Source: an uncultured bacterium
Lineage (GTDB): Bacteria; Patescibacteriota; Minisyncoccia; Phycocordibacterales; Phycocordibacteraceae
NCBI GenBank assembly: GCA_947085985.1
Contig: CAMTYL010000003.1
Coordinates: forward strand, 137,239 to 201,238
Length of the DNA stretch: 64,000 nucleotides
Reading direction: 5' to 3'
Under the pieces are notes generated by a model. The model worked only from the letters and a program-made list of their open reading frames with translations. It was not told the origin of the DNA and did not search any database. Positions 2,658 through 21,940 of the stretch are shown here, piece after piece. The translations under genes and the position numbers were made by a program. How positions within the stretch are numbered: position 1 is the first letter of the stretch; each line of letters opens with the position of its first letter.

Positions 2658-3644
2658 TTACGGGGCAGACGTGTAAGGAATGCCGGCAAAATGATTGCGA
2701 GTGAGCGAAAGCAGCTTTGAGACGTCGGAGAATCTGCCTTCCACAGAAGAACCAAGCACGACGATAGCCACTGGGTGACCAATGCCCGCGTCGTACACAA
2801 TGGCAAGGTTGCCCCCCGCCAGGTCTGTATAGCCTGTTTTTGATAGGAGTAAGTTTGGTACACGAGCGGCGCCCTGGTTAGTGTTCTTGAGCGTGTGGGT
2901 AACACCTGCCTTAGAAGATACGCTCACACTATGTTCTGCAGTAGCGCGCGCAATATCTGGAGCAACAGCAACGAGTGCGCCCGCCAACTGAGCCACATCG
3001 TATGCGGAGCCGTACCCCCCTGAGAGCGTCGTGTTTACATCAAGGCCAGTTCCATTTACTGCGTAGGTTTGAGGAAGACCCAGTGCAGAGGCCGCTGAAG
3101 CCATAAGGTTCTTCTTGCTTGTCGCTGCCTTTGCTTCCGCAGCTTCCGTAATAGCAGCAGCAGCGTCGTTAGACGAGGCAACGAGCGCGAGCTTTGCTGC
3201 GCTTGCGAGCGTGAACTGTTCGCCTATGGAAAACCCACTCTCACCCTCCACCGCTTCAGCTGATGCAGTGATAGTGACCGTGCCATCCTCTCCGAGTGTC
3301 GTGGCGCCAACATATGCAGTGAGCAGCTTAGTAAGTGACGCGAGGGGAAGCTGCGCTTTAGCGTTCTTTTGGAACAGCACTTCATTGGTGGAGAGGTCGT
3401 ACACAATCGCAGCCCTCCCTTCAATTCGTGTGGACCCGTACGCGTCCACAGGGGCTACTGTTACAACTTCAGGCTCAGTGACGGCAATCCCCTTTTCTTC
3501 CCTTGGTAGCAAGGGCGAGACGAGTACCAGCAGGCCGAGCACCGCTGAGCCCGCGATAATAACGCGTGCAGCCTGGCGCTCTTTGTTGCGCTTATCAAGC
3601 TTTTGTATGAGCACTTTTAAATCAGGATACTGAGCGGGCTTCAT
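2658..3644 (-). CDS. D-alanyl-D-alanine carboxypeptidase (S11 / PBP5-like serine peptidase)
   Basis: N-terminal TM anchor, SxxK (ASLTKLL), SxN (SSND) and KTG (SKTGYT) motifs. Confidence 0.65.
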   Translation of the reverse strand: MKPAQYPDLKVLIQKLDKRNKERQAARVIIAGSAVLGLLVLVSPLLPREEKGIAVTEPEVVTVAPVDAYGSTRIEGRAAIVYDLSTNEVLFQKNAKAQLPLASLTKLLTAYVGATTLGEDGTVTITASAEAVEGESGFSIGEQFTLASAAKLALVASSNDAAAAITEAAEAKAATSKKNLMASAASALGLPQTYAVNGTGLDVNTTLSGGYGSAYDVAQLAGALVAVAPDIARATAEHSVSVSSKAGVTHTLKNTNQGAARVPNLLLSKTGYTDLAGGNLAIVYDAGIGHPVAIVVLGSSVEGRFSDVSKLLSLTRNHFAGIPYTSAP

Positions 3645-4195
3645 ACGTCTGTTTCTGCTAACTCCTTACGTGCCTCCCCTTCGGCTATCGCTCCTGCAAG
3701 CTCACTGTAGCGCGGCAAATCCTCTCGGCGGCTCACGCCAAGGTGTGCGAGCGCGTCCACGGTAGCGCGGTAGCGTGCGCGTCGCTTGTCTGCCTCGTCT
3801 TCGCCGCGCTCAATGAGTCCACGAAGCAGAAGTGCACGAAGTGCGGCTGCAGAGTTAACCCCACGTACCCAATCAATGTCGGTGCGTGTTGCCGTGCCTC
3901 GGTACAAAATAATGGCGAGTGTTTCTAGGGACGCCTTTCCAAGGTCGCGTGAGAGCTCGCTCTCTCGTAGCTTCTTCACGATGTCTGCTGCCCACGGGCT
4001 GGTACGAAGCTCCAGCTCTGATTCTGTTTCAACGACGGCCAGACCGCGCGCTGCAAGCGAAACTACCAAATCATCCACGGCAAGCACGAGGGTGTGTGCA
4101 GAAAAATCCAGCAGAGCGCATATCTGCTTTTTGGTAAGCGGGCCCCCTTCTGCAAACAAGAGTGCTTCCAGCTGTGCCGAAGGAGAAAGTGTCAT
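3641..4195 (-). CDS. scpB: Segregation and condensation protein B (ScpB)
   Basis: SPSAQLEALLFAEGGPLTKKQICALL... is typical of the ScpB winged-helix N-terminus. It follows scpA. The start was trimmed to the internal Met to avoid overlap. Confidence 0.7.
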   Translation of the reverse strand: MTLSPSAQLEALLFAEGGPLTKKQICALLDFSAHTLVLAVDDLVVSLAARGLAVVETESELELRTSPWAADIVKKLRESELSRDLGKASLETLAIILYRGTATRTDIDWVRGVNSAAALRALLLRGLIERGEDEADKRRARYRATVDALAHLGVSRREDLPRYSELAGAIAEGEARKELAETDV

Positions 4196-8022: not shown

Positions 8023-8349
8023 TCAGGCGGCTTCGGAAATAGCCGCACTTGCCGCAGCACCGGCGTCCTCCAGGAACTGGTCGGTGATGACCTTGAGCAG
8101 ACCGATCATGAGTAGTCGCTGGACCGGTTCTTCGTCGGCCATCTCTTGCACCAGTCTCACGGTGATCGTGAACAGCCCCGAGACGTCGAAGCTGTGGGTC
8201 AGCGTCTGGCGCTTGAACCCGAGTTCGTTGGTGAGGCAGATAATCAGCCCCTGCTGTTCGGCGAGTTTGAGCGGCCCGTTCTGAGCCGCCAAGTGTTCAA
8301 GGATGCGTTCGATGCTCGGCTCGTACGCGGCCTCAAGTTTTTCAGCCAT
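8023..8349 (-). CDS. Hypothetical small protein (108 aa) in a GC-elevated insert
   Basis: ORF with protein-like composition and local GC clearly above the flanks. No recognisable motif. Confidence 0.3.
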   Translation of the reverse strand: MAEKLEAAYEPSIERILEHLAAQNGPLKLAEQQGLIICLTNELGFKRQTLTHSFDVSGLFTITVRLVQEMADEEPVQRLLMIGLLKVITDQFLEDAGAAASAAISEAA

Positions 8350-9376: not shown

Positions 9377-9491
9377 GAAAATACGATAGCACGGCTCTGG
9401 TCAGGAATGTATGTGGGAACGCCGCCTCGCTTCTGCGGGGCGGCGCTTTCCTCATGTACTGCTTCGTCTGCAGCGATAGCCGCCAACTCGG

Positions 9492-10001
9492 CTACAGAAT
9501 CCTGATCAGCGTTACCTGCCGGACCTTGCCGTCGAGCTGAACGAGCTCTTTGGTGCCCGGTGCGGCCCCAAGAAACGCGATGGCGAACGGAAGCTCGTAG
9601 GAAACCCTACGAGGAACCGAATCGCAATCGCTGTCCTCGTATCCGGCGATCTCCACGACGCGTTGCACGCGACGGGATTTGCCTTTGCTGCGAGTCCAGT
9701 ATTGGAACACGCCGGCAAGTCCGATACGAAGCCGCGTACGCTCAGTCGGGACAGGCACAAGTTGCGCCTGTTTCCGAATGAGCGTGAGACGGTCGATGAG
9801 TCTGCGGTTCGACTCGTTCTCGCACGTGGCAGCGTCTTGCATACGCATTCCACCACCAGTGCTTCCTGAATCACGAGCCTGTCGGTCAGAGGATTCGCTC
9901 TGAAGCCGTTTCAGTCTCTTGGTCCAGTCCGCAATCTGTCGGTCGAGTCGATGTTGACCCGCTGCCGTAACAAACTTGTCCTTAAAGCATTGACACTGCA
10001 T
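9492..10001 (-). CDS. GreA/GreB C-terminal-domain protein (Rnk-like). The true start is probably an internal Met, giving about 120 aa.
   Basis: The C-terminus ...RRVSYELPFAIAFLGAAPGTKELVQLDGKVRQVTLIRIL fits the FKBP-like GreA C-terminal domain consensus (iS..SPlgrALlG..vGd.v.v..p.G...y.I..I). Lies in a high-GC region. Confidence 0.45.
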   Translation of the reverse strand: MQCQCFKDKFVTAAGQHRLDRQIADWTKRLKRLQSESSDRQARDSGSTGGGMRMQDAATCENESNRRLIDRLTLIRKQAQLVPVPTERTRLRIGLAGVFQYWTRSKGKSRRVQRVVEIAGYEDSDCDSVPRRVSYELPFAIAFLGAAPGTKELVQLDGKVRQVTLIRIL

Positions 10002-10205
10002 GTACTCCCCCTGTTGCTGGGTGGTTTCCTCGAGTAGTTTCTTGTTGGCCCAAATGTACAGAGCCTGGGTAGAAGCATACTCCTGTGAGTTTCAATAGCT
10101 AGAAGGACCTGTGTATAGAAATAGACACGCCGCGGACCCGGTGAAGGGTTCGCGGCGCTTGGAGCTTCTGCTCCAGTGACTCCACGCTTCAGCGTGTTGT
10201 CGGTA

Positions 10206-10766
10206 CTAGGCGGCCGCCACTTTCAGCGGCAGTTGACGTTGAGCGTCTTCCGCGTGGACTTCGTGGTCGGGCTCGGGGGTGTGCTCGATCGCGACGATGG
10301 TCGCGTCGTAGCTCTTGCCGCCGAGTTTGATCGTGAGATCGTCGCCGACGCGCTTGCCCACCAGGGCGGCGCCCAGAGGAGTTTCGTAGAAGATGACCCG
10401 TACACCCTGTTGGATGTAGAGTTGGGGCTCGTCTTCCCCGCCGACGACGTACTTCAGGGTTTTGGTTTCCCCCTCCTCGTCGTCGTACTCCAGCGTGACC
10501 ATGCGGTCCACGCAGGTCTTGTCGATCTCGGGCGAGACCATGGCCTGCACGTGCGAGGCGATGAACATGTTCAGGCGTGTCAGCGAAATGCTGCCCGTAG
10601 CCTCGGCGAGCAAGGTGTCATACAGTTCCCCCTTCTCGCCGTTTTTCACTGAGTTATTCCCCGTGCCGGTGAACGAGTTCATCGGCTCGCAGAGCGTGCT
10701 CTTCAGCAGGCTCCGCATGGTTTGGGCGGCCTTCATGCCGTTTCTTGTACAAACTTTCATGGACAC
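10206..10766 (-). CDS. greA: GreA-family transcript cleavage factor
   Basis: C-terminal ...LKYVVGGEDEPQLYIQQGVRVIFYETPLGAALVGKRVGDDLTIKLGGKSYDATIVAIEH matches the GreA C-terminal domain. The N-terminal coiled-coil-like half is more divergent. Confidence 0.6.
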   Translation of the reverse strand: MSMKVCTRNGMKAAQTMRSLLKSTLCEPMNSFTGTGNNSVKNGEKGELYDTLLAEATGSISLTRLNMFIASHVQAMVSPEIDKTCVDRMVTLEYDDEEGETKTLKYVVGGEDEPQLYIQQGVRVIFYETPLGAALVGKRVGDDLTIKLGGKSYDATIVAIEHTPEPDHEVHAEDAQRQLPLKVAAA

Positions 10767-10844
10767 TATATGTCCCCCTATTTCAATGATGAATGCGGCC
10801 GGTTGGCCGCATAAGTATCATACGACTAAAAATGTAAAACGCAA

Positions 10845-10871
10845 GGGCGAGCACGCTACACGTGCTCGCCC
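10845..10871 (-). terminator. Rho-independent terminator after the ClpX-ZBD gene
   Basis: gggcgagcacg-ctaca-cgtgctcgccc stem-loop. On the minus strand it is followed by ttgcgttttacattttt. Confidence 0.55.
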
Positions 10872-10880
10872 TGTGATGCC

Positions 10881-11462
10881 CTACTCGGCGTCGTCGCCTT
10901 TCGCTCTCAGCTGGGTCTCCACAGCCAGCTCCGGACCGGGGTCTTCACGCGGTTCGGGTGCAGGAAGCTCGGCCAGCTCGCCGCTCTTGGTGGTGGTGCC
11001 GAGGCGCAGAGCTTGAAGTTCGCTCTGTAGACCTTGGGTGTCCTCGTCAAACGCCCTTTGAACCGCGGTTCGTCGCTCTTCAATGAGAGTCTCGAGCTCC
11101 TTGATACGGGCGCGCACAGGAGCCGCGGTGTTGATGCGGTCCGAGGCGTTCGTCAGAATACTGCGCAAAAGCGCAGTGACGCTGACCGTTTCCCCGTCCG
11201 TAACGTACCCGCCCTCGGTCAGGATAGCCTCCACCGATTCCCCCTGCTCCTCGGCGAGCTTGTCCCAGATGTAGCCAGGAATCTTAGCGTTGAGGTCGAG
11301 AGTGCCAGTCGCCTGAATCTCTTCCTTGATGATTTCTTCGCAGAGGACGACGCACTCATCGCAGATGTTGACTGTGGGTCCGGCGATCAACTTGCGGACT
11401 TCGTGTTGGCTCTTACTGCAGAAAGAGCAGTACAAGGTAGTTCTGGCTTTGGCGTCGCTCAT
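10881..11462 (-). CDS. ClpX-type C4 zinc-binding domain protein with no AAA+ module
   Basis: N-terminus [37 protein letters not shown] is a near-consensus ClpX ZBD. The remaining ~140 aa is acidic/coiled-coil-like and has no Walker motifs. Confidence 0.6.
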
Positions 11463-11481
11463 GACGACATCCTCCATGACA

Positions 11482-13727
11482 TTACAATGAAACAAAAGGG
11501 CTCACCTTGTGTGAGCAACCAGTGGCAACCATACAAGCAGAATCGCTTAGTGTCTGCTGTCTAGCTTGGAGGGCTGCCAGTTGCGCGAGAAGTGCGGCAA
11601 GCTTAGCCTGCATGTCTGCCATAGATGGCGTAGGAGATACTGTCGCCACGGGCGTACCAGTCTGACCCTGATTCAGCAGTGCTCTGGTTTGTGGACCCGC
11701 TCTTCCGACTGACTGGAGTCCGCGCGCAGCCTGGAAAGCTGAAACAGCGCTTGCCGTGAGGGGGCCAAAGTAGCCTGTGATTGGCCCTGTATAAAATCCA
11801 AGAGAAGTGAGGGTGCGCTGTAACTCGGTCACGTCAGTTCCGGTGCTACCTACCGAAAGATCGCGAGCAAAGGTGTATGTCGCTGCACCAAGTACGCGCG
11901 GAGCCTCCTGTACCGCGGTAAGTGGTCGCGCAACAGATACAGGAGTCGTTGCACGGGTGATGGTTGAACTACCTCCCCCTCCACCACCACGAGACGATGA
12001 TGAACCTCCACCCCCGCCCCCTCCACCACCTCCCCCACTACTTACGACAGGTGCAGAGACTATAACGTTGCGCTCCGTTGTTGTTGCGATATTCCCCGCC
12101 GTGTCTGTCGCGTTATACAGGAGGGTGTATATGTTAGCAGCACTTGTATTCACATTACCTACTCCCATTATCGTGGTGGTCGCGTCTGTGTTATCGGTCA
12201 CGGTAGCGCCCGGGTCGGTGAACACGTCCCCGACGGTGAGATGCATGGGATTGCTACCAATGAGGGTGATGATGGGTGGTTCTGTGTCGGTGACTATTGG
12301 GGTGGTCGTTGCAACTACTGAGACAAGTGCATTGTATGCGTTGAGACGCTTTCCTGAGACGGTTTTTCCAGAAAGCGTTTCAAGCTCATCCCCGCTGTCC
12401 ATAAGTGCGGCTTTCACTTGTGCTGCACTGAGTGACGGATCATACGACCACAGCAGTGCCGCTACTCCCGAAACATAGGGGGCTGACATGGAAGTGCCAG
12501 TCTTATAGCTGTACCCGCCTAGCGGAATGGTGCTCCGGATGTTTGAGCCAGGAGCAGCTAAGTCCACACTCGTTGTTCCATAGTTGGAATAAGAGGTGAG
12601 GGAGTCAAAAGCGTCGGTCGCAGCAACACTTATGATGGCTGGCAAATCATAGCTTGCGGGGTACACCGGGTTTTCGGGGGCATCTAGATCTCTGCCGCCA
12701 TTACCCGCAGAAGCGACAAACAAGCCGCCCGAATTTTGGAATCGCTCTATAGCATCGTATTCAGCTTGCGAAAAACTGTCGCCTCCGAAGCTCGCGTTAA
12801 TAATCTTTGCGCCGTTTGCTATGGCAAAATCTATGGCTCGTATCTCGGTCACAGTATCAAGAGCAAAACGAAGCGCCATAATCTTTGCTCCATATGCAAT
12901 ACCAACCACACCCACGTCGTCATGCACTGCAGCAATAATGCCGGATACGTGTGTGCCGTGCGCGCTCGTGCTGTCGGTTGTGGTAGCGCGTGGGTCGCTG
13001 GTGCTGTATTCAAAGTCGTATCCGTGTATGCAGCTCCACGAAGTGGTGCCTGTCTCGCTCACGCAGGAACTTCCGTCCCACATGTTGTTCATGAGCTCTG
13101 GGTGCGTATAGTCAACGCCCGTATCAATCACAGCCACGGTTACGGCAGTCCCTGAAGCAATGTCCCATGCGGACAGTGCGTCAATATCAGCACCCAGGGT
13201 ACCCGTTATGCTGTTTACCGTCTGTCCTGTGTTGTAGAGTGCCCACGAGTTTGCAAGCTCCACACTCGTTGTCGCAAGCACCTCTACGGAGCGGATGTAG
13301 TTTGGCTCCGCATACTTCACTGCAGGGTTAGATTCAAGGTCAGCTATTGCTTGTGCCACTGATAACTGCGCAGTAGTTTTTACCACGGCCATGTTCATGC
13401 CGTGAATGATGTCAACAGTTTCCAAGGAAAGAGATTCCGTCACCGTTTCCGCCTTCTGCTGGTCTGCGTGGTCTGTCAGGTCTATACGGGATTCCTTGTA
13501 TTTTACAATCACCTCACCCTCCACATAGGTGCCAGAGAGCGGCTCTATCTTCTCAATAGGTTCGGTGGACGGTTCCAATACAATAGTCAGTATCTCTGTT
13601 GGGCTCGCAACTGGCTCAGTGGAAGTCTCTACAACGAGCGTTTGTTCGGGTGCCTCCTGAGCAACTGCGAAAGTTGGTGCGCTACTAAGTAGCACAATGA
13701 GCATGAGGGCGAAAGCGCGTCGCATAG
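11482..13727 (-). CDS. Secreted subtilisin-like serine protease (S8) with a poly-Gly linker and a C-terminal peptidoglycan-binding domain
   Basis: Signal peptide [25 protein letters not shown]. Catalytic D (VAVIDTGVD), H (HGTHVSG) and S ([11 protein letters not shown]). [24 protein letters not shown] linker. PG_binding_1-like ...[33 protein letters not shown]. Confidence 0.85.
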
Positions 13728-13790
13728 TATCTATAGTATAGCTGAGCTTGGGCGGGAAATGAAAAGACCCCTGACGGGGTTTTTCAGTTG

Positions 13791-13873
13791 TGCGCCGGGA
13801 AGGATTCGAACCTTCGTAGGCCGAAGCCGCGGGATTTACAGTCCCGTTCAATTGACCGCTCTGACACCGACGC
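13791..13873 (-). tRNA. tRNA-Tyr (anticodon GTA), type II with a long variable arm
   Basis: Reverse complement GCGTCGG-TG-TCAGAGCGGTCAATTGAAC-GGGACTGTAAATCCC-GCGGCTTCGGCCTACG-AAGGTTCGAATCCTT-CCCGGCGCA. It has a 7-bp acceptor stem (one G-U), anticodon loop CTGTAAA, long variable arm, and GTTCGAATC T-loop. Confidence 0.8.
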
Positions 13874-14648
13874 TTTCAATATGTCTATACCTCCGAAGGT
13901 GCTTTGTGTTGGCAGGTTCTATCTCCTGAAAGAACCTTTTAATGTCTGGTCTTCTTGTTAGATACACCCTCCACGAACCAACTTCGGATGGTGTGTATTG
14001 TAGCGTAAGTAGCATCCTCCGTAAAGAATGAAGTAAGGGTAAGGATTTATTTGTCAGGGAGACCTGTATACCGTGACGGATTCTATATATGGAACCGTCT
14101 GTGTCAAAAAATCCCCGCAGAAAAGCAGTCATATATTCCCTCTCCTTAAACACCCAGGAAGGCACGTCCACCTGCAGAGCAACCTTGTTTCGCACTAACC
14201 CTTCATTCTCGAGCCAAGAGGTTAGAGCTACTGAGCCAATGTAGACATCTCTGTACCCGTCCTGCCGTACAAGAATAGTTGCCTCTACACCAAACAAAGA
14301 CTGCATAAGCGAAGCAACATACTCAACGTACTCAAGCTCCTTTGTGCCAAGAGTAACGATAGTTTGAAAGCGTGATATGTGCCCGTCACCAAGCATAATT
14401 CCAAAGAACTCTGCCAAAGGTGCGGAGTACTCGGTGGGTATTCGAATGTCTCGCCTCATATTTCGGAAGCCTTTCTTTAGTTCGGGAGAGCTCTGAATGT
14501 TTAATCTTCTAAGTCGCAGAAAAACCGAACTCTGTGCTATGCCCAGAATATGTGCAACTTCAGAAATTGATTTATTTTCGCGCACGTACAAACGCTCAAG
14601 CTCAGTTCTGTACGTCTTCTCTTCTGCTGCGTTCCAGCGTCTGGCCAT
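13848..14648 (-). CDS. Free-standing LAGLIDADG-type homing endonuclease (two motifs) with an N-terminal sigma-70 region-4-like HTH
   Basis: Two LAGLIDADG motifs (GIMLGDGHI and GFFDTDGSI). N-terminal HTH ...KSISEVAHILGIAQSSVFLRLRRL. Its last ~8 codons overlap the 5' half of tRNA-Tyr. Confidence 0.65.
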   Translation of the reverse strand: MARRWNAAEEKTYRTELERLYVRENKSISEVAHILGIAQSSVFLRLRRLNIQSSPELKKGFRNMRRDIRIPTEYSAPLAEFFGIMLGDGHISRFQTIVTLGTKELEYVEYVASLMQSLFGVEATILVRQDGYRDVYIGSVALTSWLENEGLVRNKVALQVDVPSWVFKEREYMTAFLRGFFDTDGSIYRIRHGIQVSLTNKSLPLLHSLRRMLLTLQYTPSEVGSWRVYLTRRPDIKRFFQEIEPANTKHLRRYRHIESVGVRAVN

Positions 14649-16711: not shown

Positions 16712-17371
16712 GTGACCGGTCAACCAGCCACGCACTACCCGGTTCACACGAGCCCCTGTGGCCGCGTGCAACTGGGCGCCATGAAGCGCGAGTACCTGGA
16801 CAAGTTCATCCCCTGGGCCAACAATCTCGAAACCACCGCCGGCCTGCGTCTCTCGGCGCCGATTACATACGAAGCCGAGGTGGAGTGGTATGAATCGCTC
16901 CCCAAGGCGCACAACCGGGAAGTCTTCGCCATCCTGGTGAAGGACGACCCGGTGGACAGTGAATATCAGTACGTGGGCCACACCGGCCTGCACAACATCC
17001 ACTTCCCCTCGGCACACGCGACCTCGGGCACCATCATTGGCGACCCGAAAGCGCGCGGACGTGGCATCGGCAAGATCGCAAAGCTTCTGCTGCTACAGCA
17101 TGCGTTCCGCTACACCGGTCTGCGTAAGGTGGTCTCGGACGTGAAGTCCTTCAACCTCGCCAGCATCGGTCACCTGGTCGCCTGTGGCTACAAGGTGGTG
17201 GGTGTGCAGAGGGATCACTTCTTCCACGAGGGAGCCTTTGTCGACAAAGTGCTTCTCGAAGTTCACCGCGCCGATTTCGAACCGATCTGGGAGAAGTACA
17301 AAAGGACCGGAAAGGTTCCGACGCTCTCCGACAAGCAGCGCAAGCGCATCGGCAAACTCCACCGCACGTAG
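16712..17371 (+). CDS. GNAT-family N-acetyltransferase (RimL/RimJ-like)
   Basis: Acetyl-CoA binding loop GDPKARGRGIGKIAKLLLLQHAFRYTGLRKV. High-GC (about 60%+) gene in a lower-GC context. Confidence 0.6.
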   Translation: MTGQPATHYPVHTSPCGRVQLGAMKREYLDKFIPWANNLETTAGLRLSAPITYEAEVEWYESLPKAHNREVFAILVKDDPVDSEYQYVGHTGLHNIHFPSAHATSGTIIGDPKARGRGIGKIAKLLLLQHAFRYTGLRKVVSDVKSFNLASIGHLVACGYKVVGVQRDHFFHEGAFVDKVLLEVHRADFEPIWEKYKRTGKVPTLSDKQRKRIGKLHRT

Positions 17372-19086: not shown

Positions 19087-19623
19087 TTAATCAGCGTTAT
19101 TGCGGATCAAGTCCTCTACATATCGAGAGAAATACCCAGCATATTTTTCACGAATTTCCGGAAGCTTCCAATCAGAACCTGTTATGTTGCCTCGACACGA
19201 GGTAGTTCCGCATAAACATGGCATAGGTTCCCATAGCTCCTCTGCTCGCTCTACGTCAGTCATGGCGTAGTCAAAAGTAATTTGCTCCCCTGCAGCAATG
19301 TCACGCAGTGCAACCATCGATATCTGCCCACGGAAACCACAGGTTGGCTCACATGAGTGATTTACATTGAAAACGCCGTCCGCTATTTCACGCACAGGTT
19401 CTATTGGGCATATATATTGATTACGTTCAACTTGGAAACAGTGATACCCGTAGGGCTCGTATTGAGGCAGGTCTAATTCAGGTGACGCAAGAATGCGGCC
19501 TCCTTGTACAATAACCAGGTCATTCTTCGGTATTGGATCCTTGGTGAAGGTTCCAATACCGATTCCTGGAACGTCCCGGAATTCTAGTGAGGGGTGCACC
19601 CAAGAGTATGTAGTCATTTTCAT
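19087..19623 (-). CDS. SET-domain protein (putative lysine methyltransferase)
   Basis: NHSCEPTC (NHSCxPN), EQITFDYA (ELTFDY) and a post-SET Cys cluster (CLCGTTSCRG). Confidence 0.65.
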   Translation of the reverse strand: MKMTTYSWVHPSLEFRDVPGIGIGTFTKDPIPKNDLVIVQGGRILASPELDLPQYEPYGYHCFQVERNQYICPIEPVREIADGVFNVNHSCEPTCGFRGQISMVALRDIAAGEQITFDYAMTDVERAEELWEPMPCLCGTTSCRGNITGSDWKLPEIREKYAGYFSRYVEDLIRNNAD

Positions 19624-19633
19624 AAGCCAATAG

Positions 19634-20032
19634 TTATTCAGTAATCTCTTCAGCAGAGGGTTCGCTCGTCTCTGACATTGGCTCATAAACACAAATTTCT
19701 CCCTCTTCCAGGGTGTCTTCGGAACAGAGAGTTAGTACACAATCTGGCTCGTTTACCTCGCAGGTAAGAGCAGGACACTGATCCAGTAGGTAGTTAGGAC
19801 ACAGGGTAATATACGCTGCGCTCTTCTCAATTCGCTTGTAGGGCTCTGTGTCGCACTCAGCATCTATAGGGTCGCAGTCTTGCACAAAGCATGATTCTGC
19901 AGAAGGGTCGCATGGAACATGATCAGTGATTAAAAAATTCCGCTCTAAAAAGTACACGGAGTACTTCCACGCAACTGCACTTACAAGAAGCGCAATAAAC
20001 ACAAACAAAAGCCACTTAGAGTTCTTTTTCAC
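19634..20032 (-). CDS. Small membrane-anchored Cys-rich acidic protein (hypothetical)
   Basis: N-terminal TM/signal (KWLLFVFIALLVSAVAW). 14 Cys in about 100 residues, with an acidic tail. Confidence 0.35.
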   Translation of the reverse strand: MKKNSKWLLFVFIALLVSAVAWKYSVYFLERNFLITDHVPCDPSAESCFVQDCDPIDAECDTEPYKRIEKSAAYITLCPNYLLDQCPALTCEVNEPDCVLTLCSEDTLEEGEICVYEPMSETSEPSAEEITE

Positions 20033-20129: not shown

Positions 20130-20759
20130 CTAGAGAAAGGACGCGAGTTGCTGAAGCAGAGCTTCAAGCCACTCGATTGTGTGGACAACCCACTGCCACT
20201 CGGGCTGGGTGAGACAGGTCTCGCCAGCGCACCCAGCCAGACGCTCGAACCAGTGGGTTGCGTAGGTCAACGTGAGCCAGTACAGCGCAGTCCAGACACC
20301 CACCCCCCACAATACCGACGGAATCATCACGCGAAAGACGACCGACAGCCGCCCCTCACCCTTCTTGCGAAGGAATAGGGTGACGTAGTCACATTCCAGG
20401 TAAACGACACTGCCGATAAGCATCATGGTCCAGTACGAGTGGCTCAAGAAGCGCAGAAGCGCCTTGGTCGTCATGGTCATGATACGGCCGACCCAGGACC
20501 CCTTGCGGGAAGTGGGCTCGAACGCCCACTTCTTGAGGTCGTCCACGCCGGTGATGTCGAACCCGCGCTTTGACGTCTGCAGATGGAGTTCAAGTACCCC
20601 CAAACTGAAGACAAACGAGAGGCCGACGCCTACGGCGAAAGCGTGGAGCGGACCCCACTTAATGAGGCAGATGATGATGGCCGCATCAATGAGTTTGTCC
20701 AAAAAGGACAGAAAGCGCTCAACGGTGAGCGCGCTCGCAATTCGAGCTTCGTTTCGCAC
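20130..20759 (-). CDS. Hypothetical polytopic membrane protein (high-GC gene)
   Basis: About 5 predicted TM segments. GC is clearly higher than the flanks. No motif assignment. Confidence 0.35.
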   Translation of the reverse strand: MRNEARIASALTVERFLSFLDKLIDAAIIICLIKWGPLHAFAVGVGLSFVFSLGVLELHLQTSKRGFDITGVDDLKKWAFEPTSRKGSWVGRIMTMTTKALLRFLSHSYWTMMLIGSVVYLECDYVTLFLRKKGEGRLSVVFRVMIPSVLWGVGVWTALYWLTLTYATHWFERLAGCAGETCLTQPEWQWVVHTIEWLEALLQQLASFL

Positions 20760-20845: not shown

Positions 20846-21940
20846 CTACCCTTTCGCAGAGCCGTATATGAAAACGTTCTCTTCAAGGAAGCTTGGAATA
20901 AACTCCTTTTTCTCTGTCACATTCTGGAGATGCTTCTTGAACAAGGGCATAAGCACGTCGTACGTAGTGATTAGTGGAGCCTTTGCCTTTGGTACTCCCG
21001 CCTGAGAGCTCATCCAGCCGTCTTCCTTGAGAATAGGCACCGCAAGACGCATAAGCTCGTCATAGAATGCCGAAAGTCGAGTGAGGGCCTTACCGCTTCC
21101 TACAGGTTCATCGGTGAGGTCTATGATGATGCCGTCAAACTTCATGCAACGGTCCTTTGCCATGCGTAGGTACTGCATCGCGTCGCCCACGGACACCATG
21201 ACGTTCGGGTTACCGAACAATTTGTTCTGGTCAAAGTAGGTGCGAGCGCAGTAGATAACTTCCAGATCAAGCTCGGCAATAGTGATGCGAGCATTCGGGT
21301 TCTTCTCTAGTACTTTAGCCGCAACAAATCCGTCTCCTCCACCGAGAATAAGAATCTCTTTATCAGTAGGACGAAGCTCTTTGGTAATCGCTTCATCATA
21401 GATGTGCGTGTCACTCACTGACACCTGGGTGATGCCGTCAATAAGCATGGTCTTTCCAAACTTCTCCAAATCAAGCACCTGAATTTCCTGGAACGGACTC
21501 TTAATCTCTGCAAGTTTACGATGGACTGTTACGGTCTGCTTGGTGTTGTCCTTGTAAATAGGAATAGTGATGGTCTTTAGTTCAGCATAGCCACGATCAA
21601 CATCGTGAATCTTCTTGCGGGTGTGAGCCAGATGCTTTACCACGTGCTCAACAGCTAGATAGGTTTGCGATTCATTGGAACAGCTAAATACGTCAAACGC
21701 GGCGTAGCCATACTCGGGCCATGTGTGTACAGAAATGTGGGAGGTAGAAAGGACCAATACTCCCGTTACGCCGTGGGGCTCAAATTTATGGAAATGCGAG
21801 TGGAGAATCTCCATTTTGGCAGCATGCGCTGCACCCTCTAGAAGCTTCTTAAGCTCCGCCGCGTCGTCTAGGTCGTGGTAGTCACACCCGTATAGGTCAA
21901 ACAAATAGTGTTTTCCCTTGATTTTCTTAACTTTAATCAT
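20846..21940 (-). CDS. Fusion of S-adenosylmethionine decarboxylase proenzyme (SpeH-type) and spermidine synthase (SpeE)
   Basis: N-terminal GKHYLFDLYGC...GVTGVLVLSTSHISVHTWPEYGYAAFDVFSC is AdoMetDC with the self-cleavage Ser. The C-terminus has the spermidine synthase fold (ILILGGGDGF, ...ITIAELD...). Confidence 0.7.
   Translation of the reverse strand: MIKVKKIKGKHYLFDLYGCDYHDLDDAAELKKLLEGAAHAAKMEILHSHFHKFEPHGVTGVLVLSTSHISVHTWPEYGYAAFDVFSCSNESQTYLAVEHVVKHLAHTRKKIHDVDRGYAELKTITIPIYKDNTKQTVTVHRKLAEIKSPFQEIQVLDLEKFGKTMLIDGITQVSVSDTHIYDEAITKELRPTDKEILILGGGDGFVAAKVLEKNPNARITIAELDLEVIYCARTYFDQNKLFGNPNVMVSVGDAMQYLRMAKDRCMKFDGIIIDLTDEPVGSGKALTRLSAFYDELMRLAVPILKEDGWMSSQAGVPKAKAPLITTYDVLMPLFKKHLQNVTEKKEFIPSFLEENVFIYGSAKG

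Follow-up and report, generated by a model that had tools for sequence, protein, structure and literature searches.

A stand-alone ClpX-type docking domain beside two Gre-fold proteins, one with a degron-like tail, in a variable gene slot of Parcubacteria

What could the docking domain of a protease do when it is encoded without the protease itself? This question is raised by positions 9480-11500 of the DNA studied here (the window, a stretch of 64,000 nucleotides in all). The window comes from the tiny genome of a member of the Parcubacteria, as the best named homologs of its aspartyl-tRNA synthetase (AspRS) are in Patescibacteria/Parcubacteria. Three open reading frames (ORFs) lie on the minus strand of 9480-11500, at 9492-10001, 10206-10760 and 10881-11462. 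The last of them encodes a stand-alone ClpX-type docking domain, that is, ClpX's C4 zinc-binding domain (ZBD). The other two encode Gre-fold proteins, one of which carries a conserved degron-like tail, and the co-location of these genes is inherited. An earlier note on the window, made from the sequence alone, had described the segment as a high-GC insert bounded by terminator-like hairpins, and had suggested that its ZBD-only protein would act like an anti-adaptor of ClpX. The elements in question are listed below (pLDDT, predicted local distance difference test).

10881..11462, minus strand: gene of the ZBD-only protein (P0001), 193 amino acids (aa), stop codon counted in
11310..11438, minus strand: zinc-binding domain, residues 9-51, motif CSFC-x18-CDEC (PF06689)
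11001..11123, minus strand: long alpha-helix predicted for residues 114-154, within the C-terminal part that is specific to the family (AlphaFold, pLDDT 84-89)
10884..11000, minus strand: disordered Pro/Glu-rich tail, residues 155-193 of the ZBD-only protein (AlphaFold)
10844..10872, minus strand: terminator-like hairpin of the intrinsic type, right 3' of the ZBD-only gene, with a 13-bp stem and a T-run
10206..10760, minus strand: Gre-like A gene (P0121), 184 aa, a full-length Gre/Gfh1-fold factor as judged from profiles and a structural model
10209..10280, minus strand: extension at the C-terminus of Gre-like A, disordered (residues 161-184, PEPD ... QLPLKVAAA), with low pLDDT and an ssrA-like '-AA' end
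10120..10205, minus strand: three GC-rich hairpins in a row, 3' of Gre-like A (-45 kcal/mol, z=-6.4)
9492..10001, minus strand: Gre-like B gene (P0124), 169 aa, by profile comparison a divergent full-length paralog of Gre-like A
9420..9445, minus strand: GC-rich hairpin without a T-run, 3' of Gre-like B (-20.2 kcal/mol, z=-4.7)

The mechanical ORF listing extends the ZBD-only frame to a TTG at 11495. The likely start is the ATG at 11462, with a GGAGG 8 nt 5' of it, and exactly this 193-aa product is predicted by gene callers on five public contigs. For Gre-like A, an upstream GTG (ORF 10206-10766) would give 186 aa. The three genes look like separate transcription units, since each of them is closed by a GC-rich hairpin with much more stable folding than shuffled sequences show. 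The hairpin behind the ZBD-only gene has 9 GC pairs among its 13 bp and is followed by UGCGUUUU (-28.2 kcal/mol, z=-5.7 against shuffled sequences). Both of the hairpins that had been proposed as limits of the segment are therefore real (z=-5.7 and z=-4.7, the latter without a T-run), but their role as boundaries did not hold: the one placed at 10845-10871 is internal and separates the ZBD-only gene from the Gre-like A gene. The triple hairpin at 10120-10205 has more structure than a simple terminator needs, and an Rfam scan of it returned no family match.

The ZBD-only protein matches PF06689 (ClpX C4 zinc finger) with 65.5 bits (E=3.9e-18, cut-off 27) over residues 22-58 of the long ORF, and the near-consensus ClpX peptide that the earlier note had quoted is indeed present. 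It thus belongs to the same C4 zinc-finger sequence family as the N-domain of E. coli ClpX. PF06689 is the sole known domain of this protein, and precomputed Pfam assignments are the same for members of its family. Comparison with the structures of the E. coli ClpX ZBD (1OVX, 2DS5-2DS8) gave E-values of about 7e-18 to 1e-17 for residues 9-51 only; 33 of 41 residues (~80%) are identical to E. coli ClpX, and the four cysteines and the hydrophobic core are retained. At residue 16, the window protein has a Ser (CSFC[G->S]K) where ClpX and every other family member have a Gly.

Of the ATPase to which this domain is attached in ClpX, nothing was found. NCBIfam clpX models cover residues 18-63 only, with 49-52 bits against cut-offs of 359-371, and the ORF contains no Walker A, pore loop or other ClpX segment; the AAA+ module that characterizes ClpX (Walker A/B, GYVG pore loop, IGF loop) is thus missing from the protein. 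Similarly, tblastn with the ClpX AAA+ sequence in all frames of the 64-kb window detected no remnant in the ZBD-only ORF, downstream of it or elsewhere, the only other match being the Walker A of an ABC transporter at ~37.8 kb. This result confirms that the protein has no AAA+ ATPase, and it excludes a disrupted full-length clpX, one of the two outcomes that had been named as refuting the idea. Where ClpX has its ATPase, this protein has an unrelated acidic helical region and, after it, a Pro-rich tail: residues 53-193 have an isoelectric point (pI) of 4.4 and one long predicted helix (114-154), in agreement with the acidic C-terminal part noticed earlier. These residues gave no match in Pfam, in the PDB or in ClpX AAA+. 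The AlphaFold model of the monomer, built with a 9-sequence family alignment, has an overall pLDDT of 60, which is low confidence, and a fold search with this model returned the ClpX ZBD alone (E=0.02), the rest being noise. The C-terminal region was also considered as a degenerate AAA+ remnant, on account of a BLASTP pairing of 'LTEGGYV' with 'LTEAGYVGED' in a ClpX fragment (P0023). This was rejected as a chance match in a single copy; the 'GYV' likeness is absent from the rest of the family, and comparison of the family C-terminal profile with ClpX gave an hhalign probability of 0.07%.

Relatives of the ZBD-only protein were found in a search of 5.8 billion proteins, as the earlier note had advised. 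The search recovered about nine clusters with the full architecture and a common length of ~195 aa; the remaining matches were ClpX or unrelated ZBD-only ORFs. Members are 31-42% identical, and in the family alignments the four cysteines are invariant and the ZBD core is conserved, as are motifs outside the ZBD, which recur across lineages. Judged by this conservation, the ZBD-only proteins are a small but real family and not broken clpX genes.

The ZBD-only architecture in itself is of an already known kind, common in phages and bacteria and uncharacterised. Among the best 80 viral loci of IMG/VR, 47 of 60 ZBD ORFs (60-183 aa) are without Walker A, and 35 GenBank phage records hold a stand-alone ZBD ORF, mostly annotated as 'hypothetical' or mis-annotated; the name in use at NCBI/UniRef is 'ClpX C4-type zinc finger protein'. 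Like the window protein, these ORFs of bacteria, phages and prophages are short, with a ClpX-type ZBD and no Walker A. However, their flanking regions are varied and unrelated, and the ZBD may be N- or C-terminal, whereas the ~195-aa family of Parcubacteria is set apart by a conserved C-terminal region of its own and by a fixed position on the chromosome, and it is this combination that is new. In the IMG/VR and GenBank phage comparison, no viral ORF covered more than the ZBD of the window protein, and literature searches found no functional study of stand-alone ClpX-type ZBD proteins.

As for the origin of the domain, the ZBD of the window family is nearest to that of proteobacterial, and especially alphaproteobacterial, ClpX. 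Top ClpX matches are 70-80% identical, identity to alphaproteobacterial ClpX ZBDs (consensus) reaches ~95%, and at the DNA level the ZBD is 75-80% identical to clpX over about 110-135 nt. A profile search of genome contigs with the family alignment was dominated by alphaproteobacterial clpX and yielded no family loci, its patterns being ZBD-derived. From these likenesses, it is plausible that the ZBD module is a captured 5' end of a proteobacterial-type clpX and that the event is ancient.

The neighbouring Gre-like A matches the C-terminal domain of GreA/GreB in Pfam (PF01272; 37.8 bits, cut-off 26.9), and Pfam GreA_GreB_N was not detected in it. Its family profile aligned over the full length with Gfh1 (3e-9), GreA (2e-8) and GreB (2e-6). 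In its AlphaFold model (pLDDT 86.6), a coiled coil (6-24/40-69) is followed by a beta domain (70-160) and a disordered tail, and Foldseek related this model with a probability of 1.0 and template modelling (TM) scores of 0.67-0.73 to GreA, GreB and Gfh1 bound to RNA polymerase (RNAP). According to these profiles and this model, Gre-like A is a full-length Gre/Gfh1-fold protein, as the earlier note had supposed for 10206-10760. The family is rare: in 1.84 billion cluster representatives, searched exhaustively with HMMER, 26 matches were found, and a word-indexed homolog search returned the query itself only. Two-sequence profiles of Gre-like A and B against the PDB produced nothing useful. A metagenome scan for Gre-like A loci confirmed no locus with a 7-sequence alignment, and a 22-sequence alignment was too diverse.

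Gre-like A shares with the Gre factors (PDB 1GRJ, 2P4V, 2ETN/2F23/3AOI) the two-domain fold made of a coiled coil and a C-terminal globular domain, and differs from them in several respects. Its first helix is ~12 residues shorter than in canonical Gre, and in its family a conserved 15-residue loop (…FTGxGxNS…) stands in place of the tip, with an [S/G]-[E/D]-x-x-E motif that starts helix 2 beside the conserved G-x-N-S loop. The tip region is thus remodelled, and it is predicted with a pLDDT of only 57-69. In E. coli GreA, transcript cleavage needs the acidic tip residues D41/E44. Also unlike canonical Gre, the family conserves Cys4, Cys24 and His70. Going by this pattern of conservation, these three residues and the G-x-N-S/[S/G][E/D]xxE region (residues 25-45) could form a metal or redox site together with a remodelled tip, either catalytic or inhibitory. 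Finally, Gre-like A has an extra disordered tail with an '-AA' end. A rare Gre/Gfh1-like family that combines a remodelled tip with a conserved '-AA' tail is new.

Gre-like B is more divergent, and its Pfam GreA_C match is below threshold (E=0.24, 11.8 bits). Nevertheless, when the alignments of the two families were compared with hhalign, B matched A with a probability of 99% (E=4e-18, 154 columns). The L006 ortholog of Gre-like B has a GreA_C match of 1.9e-5 and a faint GreA_N match (0.049), and in the PDB Gre-like B found a weak full-length match to a Gre/Gfh1 chimera (E=0.018). By these profile comparisons, Gre-like B is a second full-length paralog of Gre-like A. Two Gre-family paralogs are therefore present, A identified by profile and fold and B through A, but the 'Rnk-like' label that had been given to 9492-10001 has to be dropped, as the protein is not a short form. 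Rnk (PDB 3BMB) does have a GreA-type C-terminal domain in common with Gre-like A (E=9e-4, C-terminal part only). Its coiled coil of ~40 residues is much shorter than the N-terminal regions of the window proteins (~70-80 residues), and both window proteins align over their full length with Gre/Gfh1 proteins of 155-158 aa.

The tail of Gre-like A deserves separate attention. Of the 22 representatives of its family, 16 have AA at the C-terminus and 19 have A, the usual form being L-x-x-A-A, whereas composition predicts 0.9% of AA ends (P about 1e-28); a PEPD linker motif is also conserved in these tails. The ssrA 'LAA' and RseA(1-108) 'VAA' C-termini are classic ClpX degrons, the hallmark of which is an exposed non-polar-Ala-Ala-COOH. 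The tails of the Gre-like A family (…LKVAAA, …LSVAA) likewise place Ala-Ala-COOH after a hydrophobic residue, and the predicted disorder of the tail would make the C-terminus of Gre-like A (…LKVAAA) accessible, as in C-motif 1 of ClpX degrons. Unlike those of ssrA and RseA, this tail is encoded in the gene, neither added by tmRNA nor exposed by cleavage, and its role as a degron is a candidate one.

Such ends are uncommon in the window, where 2 of 70 ORFs carry them: Gre-like A and one further ORF outside 9480-11500.

8023..8349, minus strand: 108-aa ORF in the trpS/aspS interval, without a Pfam match, with a GC content at third codon positions (GC3) of 0.75 and the end …SEAA

In the related loci (designated by L numbers), every ORF observed with an '-AA' end belongs to the same neighbourhood (Gre-A, Gre-B and the 117-aa ORF of L006, L091_194, Gre-A of L100, and the 118-aa ORF of L103). 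Gre-like B of the window is without such a tail, whereas Gre-B of L006 ends in '-KAA'. The 108-aa ORF has orthologs in L006_117 (11079-11432, …RACAA) and L103_118 (3348-3704, …ELAAA), and these 108-118-aa ORFs may be a second '-AA'-tailed protein family of this neighbourhood.

The chromosomal position of these genes is best described by comparison with the related loci, in which the order tyrS, tRNA-Tyr, variable slot, trpS, small ORF, aspS, pepA, scpA is conserved. The same tRNA-Tyr follows tyrS in L006, L091 and L001.

13790..13873, minus strand: tRNA-Tyr (GTA), by ARAGORN and Rfam; in every related locus, the variable slot has its upstream edge here

The content of the slot differs from locus to locus:

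Window: LAGLIDADG gene, tRNA-Tyr, S8 subtilase, ZBD, Gre-A, Gre-B
L006: ZBD, Gre-A, Gre-B
L091: ZBD, subtilase, 194-aa Gre-like ORF
L098/L094: ZBD, 72-aa GreA_C-like ORF
L100/L101: subtilase, Gre-A, Gre-B
L103: 206-aa ORF, Gre-A
L095: helix-turn-helix (HTH)/LAGLIDADG-like gene, subtilase, 112-aa GreA_C-like ORF
L096/L097: HIT protein only

The orthologs of the slot genes in relatives share only 30-42% amino-acid identity at the same site, which indicates that the arrangement is old. With regard to composition, the stretch has 58.0% GC against 51.4% for the window and is its highest 2 kb (top 0.7% of equal-length windows, z=1.9), whereas its tetranucleotide distance is unexceptional (z=1.6; 9% of equal-length windows are equally far). 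GC3 in the window and in orthologs is 0.80-0.82 for Gre-A (window, L006 and L100), 0.66-0.72 for ZBD and 0.62-0.70 for Gre-B, against ~0.55 in the flanks. Since this excess recurs in orthologs, the high GC is a heritable property of the slot genes, as opposed to the mark of a recent foreign origin. Neither att-like direct repeats flanking the slot nor an integrase were found. Accordingly, the compositional test called for by the earlier note upheld the high GC and not the tetranucleotide anomaly, and the word insert did not survive the finding of orthologs with the same GC3 at the same site and the lack of att repeats. As far as comparative sequence data can tell, the stretch is an inherited, lineage-specific variable gene slot, not a recent insert.

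Several other genes of the slot and its surroundings are worth recording. The LAGLIDADG-domain gene (266 aa, 13848-14648, minus strand) is free-standing and wedged between tyrS and tRNA-Tyr, and it overlaps the 5' part of the tRNA-Tyr gene (13790-13873) by its last 26 nt. It is missing at the equivalent site in L006 and L091, and L095 has there a 214-aa gene containing an HTH. The gene for a secreted S8 subtilase (11482-13725, minus strand), found also in L091 (8350-10314), L095 (5974-8196) and L101 (1-1398), encodes a fervidolysin-like prodomain, an Ig-like domain, a poly-Gly/Ser linker and a C-terminal peptidoglycan-binding domain; it precedes the ZBD gene in the window and follows it in L091. 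Just upstream of trpS, the 72-aa (L098, 972-1190) and 112-aa (L095, 8289-8627) ORFs resemble GreA C-terminal domains standing alone (hhalign E about 3e-4, probability ~38-39%) and, if real, would be the shortest Gre-derived proteins in these loci. GC3 in this genome is heterogeneous from gene to gene, and very high values (0.76-0.80) also occur in a GNAT acetyltransferase (16712-17371, plus strand) and in a 209-aa ORF without a Pfam match (20130-20759, minus strand). A SET-domain protein and a fused S-adenosylmethionine decarboxylase/spermidine synthase (19087-19692 and 20846-21940, both minus strand) are unusual for a small genome of the Candidate Phyla Radiation (CPR).

How might a ClpX docking domain and Gre-fold proteins work together? 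We propose, tentatively and at less than even chances, that a ZBD decoy and degron-tailed Gre paralogs controlled by proteolysis would together form a proteolysis-gated switch on the secondary channel of RNAP. Gre-like A and B would bind this channel; as their coiled-coil tip is remodelled, they would more likely modulate canonical Gre or compete with it than work as cleavage factors of the classical type. AAA+ proteolysis, acting through the ssrA/RseA-like '-AA' tail, would determine how much Gre-like A is present and keep this protein unstable. Spx offers a parallel, as an RNAP-binding regulator and ClpXP substrate whose turnover depends on the ZBD. The proposed degron of Gre-like A, suggested by its sequence, would make it a degron-bearing RNAP-binding regulator comparable to that of the Spx-YjbH-ClpXP circuit. 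For its part, the ZBD-only protein would mimic the ClpX N-domain in soluble form. It would dimerise and bind the short peptide motifs by which adaptors or substrates dock on ClpX; as a decoy or anti-adaptor, it would titrate or redirect ClpX-dependent delivery. This last idea has an experimental precedent, because the isolated ZBD of E. coli dimerises, competes with ClpX for adaptors and, in trans, inhibits the ClpXP degradation of sigma-S that RssB mediates, while ClpX without its ZBD still degrades ssrA-tagged substrates (PMC7226468). By analogy with this case, a ZBD-decoy (anti-adaptor) mechanism is plausible. The E. coli anti-adaptors IraD/IraM/IraP have the same outcome as the one proposed here, a block of adaptor-mediated delivery to ClpXP. 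However, the Ira proteins bind the adaptor RssB, whereas the ZBD-only protein would mimic the docking domain of the protease, and there is no sequence or fold kinship between them.

A number of observations weigh against the decoy proposal. The '-AA' ends of the ssrA type are read by the ClpX pore, not by the ZBD, and known biochemistry therefore provides no direct link between an '-AA' tail and a ZBD. Searches of the window and of 221 kb of clade sequence, a small sample of one chromosomal neighbourhood that is uninformative for the genome, gave neither ClpX nor ClpP, and literature searches on ClpX/ClpP in Parcubacteria or CPR found nothing relevant. Gre-A occurs without an adjacent ZBD in L103, L102 and L100/L101, the ZBD of L098/L094 is accompanied only by the 72-aa GreA_C-like ORF, and ZBD and Gre-A may be neighbours simply through inherited synteny. 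For the C-terminal two-thirds of the ZBD-only protein, no homolog is recognisable and the model is of low confidence. At residue 32, the window ZBD has an Asn (TVNICDEC) where ClpX and other family members have Tyr/Phe, and this change could alter peptide binding. The evidence being comparative and the ZBD-Gre link not strict, the value of the proposal is that of a clearly testable hypothesis, not of a demonstrated system.

Of the other explanations, one that we consider unlikely but serious is that the ZBD was exapted as a generic dimeric zinc-finger interaction module, serving as a scaffold or regulator independent of ClpXP. Partners would be bound by the ZBD or by the helical region, the candidates being the '-AA' tails of the Gre-like and 108-aa proteins. 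The C-terminal region specific to the family, conserved in length and with a confident long helix, is in line with such a role, as are the exposed tails of the neighbours (L-x-x-A-A in Gre-A, '-KAA' in L006 Gre-B and L091_194), the lack of ClpX in the neighbourhood sampled, and the many different partner regions that phage stand-alone ZBD ORFs carry. However, the ZBD core is ~80% identical to that of E. coli and up to ~95% identical to that of alphaproteobacterial ClpX, which argues that a ClpX-type binding surface has been kept; several loci have Gre-A without an adjacent ZBD, and the interaction with the tails is purely putative. An improbable arrangement would be a split ClpX, in which the ATPase of this clade has no N-domain and receives the ZBD in trans through docking of the helical region on the AAA+ ring. 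An intact and strongly conserved ZBD followed by a linker-like and helical region is circumstantially what this would require, but no locus has an AAA+ partner gene adjacent, the C-terminal region has no similarity to ClpX, and the family is rare and patchy (L095, L096 and L097 are without it at this site), which is odd for a part of an essential protease. Parcubacteria are thought to live on other cells. Together with the near identity of the ZBD to the alphaproteobacterial ClpX N-domain, this way of life would fit a host-directed mimicry, in which the ZBD protein of the symbiont jams the adaptor hierarchy of ClpXP in a proteobacterial host; we regard it as highly improbable.

Two further explanations concern history more than function. 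The segment is the highest-GC 2 kb of the window and lies in a tRNA-adjacent slot whose content differs among relatives, close to a LAGLIDADG gene, and its ZBD is closest to proteobacterial ClpX, all of which would suit a recently acquired horizontal island beside tRNA-Tyr. This is nonetheless very improbable, as diverged relatives hold orthologs (30-42% identity) at the same site, the GC3 excess is conserved in the L006 and L100 genes, the tetranucleotide distance is not significant, and neither an integrase nor an att-like direct repeat was found. A recent insertion is thus largely refuted, and it is possible that the 5' end of a clpX was captured in ancient times. That the ORF is a decaying, non-functional 5' leftover of clpX is hardly credible, even though many 'ZBD-only' matches in databases are clpX genes with a truncation or a frameshift (P0021, P0010 and P0003 among them) and the window copy has the local 'LTEGGYV' likeness to ClpX 'LTEAGYVGED'. 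The ORF is intact, with a ribosome-binding site and a terminator, its length and its motifs outside the ZBD are conserved across lineages, no frame contains AAA+ remnants, and the 'GYV' likeness is not family-wide (hhalign probability 0.07%).

Whatever the mechanism, a compact, conserved chromosomal example of a ZBD-only protein would be a tractable entry point to these proteins, since candidate partners come along with it. Should the ZBD protein turn out to be a decoy of ClpX's docking domain, it would represent a new class of protease regulator, one that mimics the protease instead of binding the adaptor. More generally, the remodelled tip and built-in '-AA' tail of the Gre/Gfh1-like family suggest a feature that has not been described for Gre-family proteins: the tails conserved in this family hint that, in the ultra-small bacteria of the CPR, secondary-channel factors of RNAP may be under regulated proteolysis.

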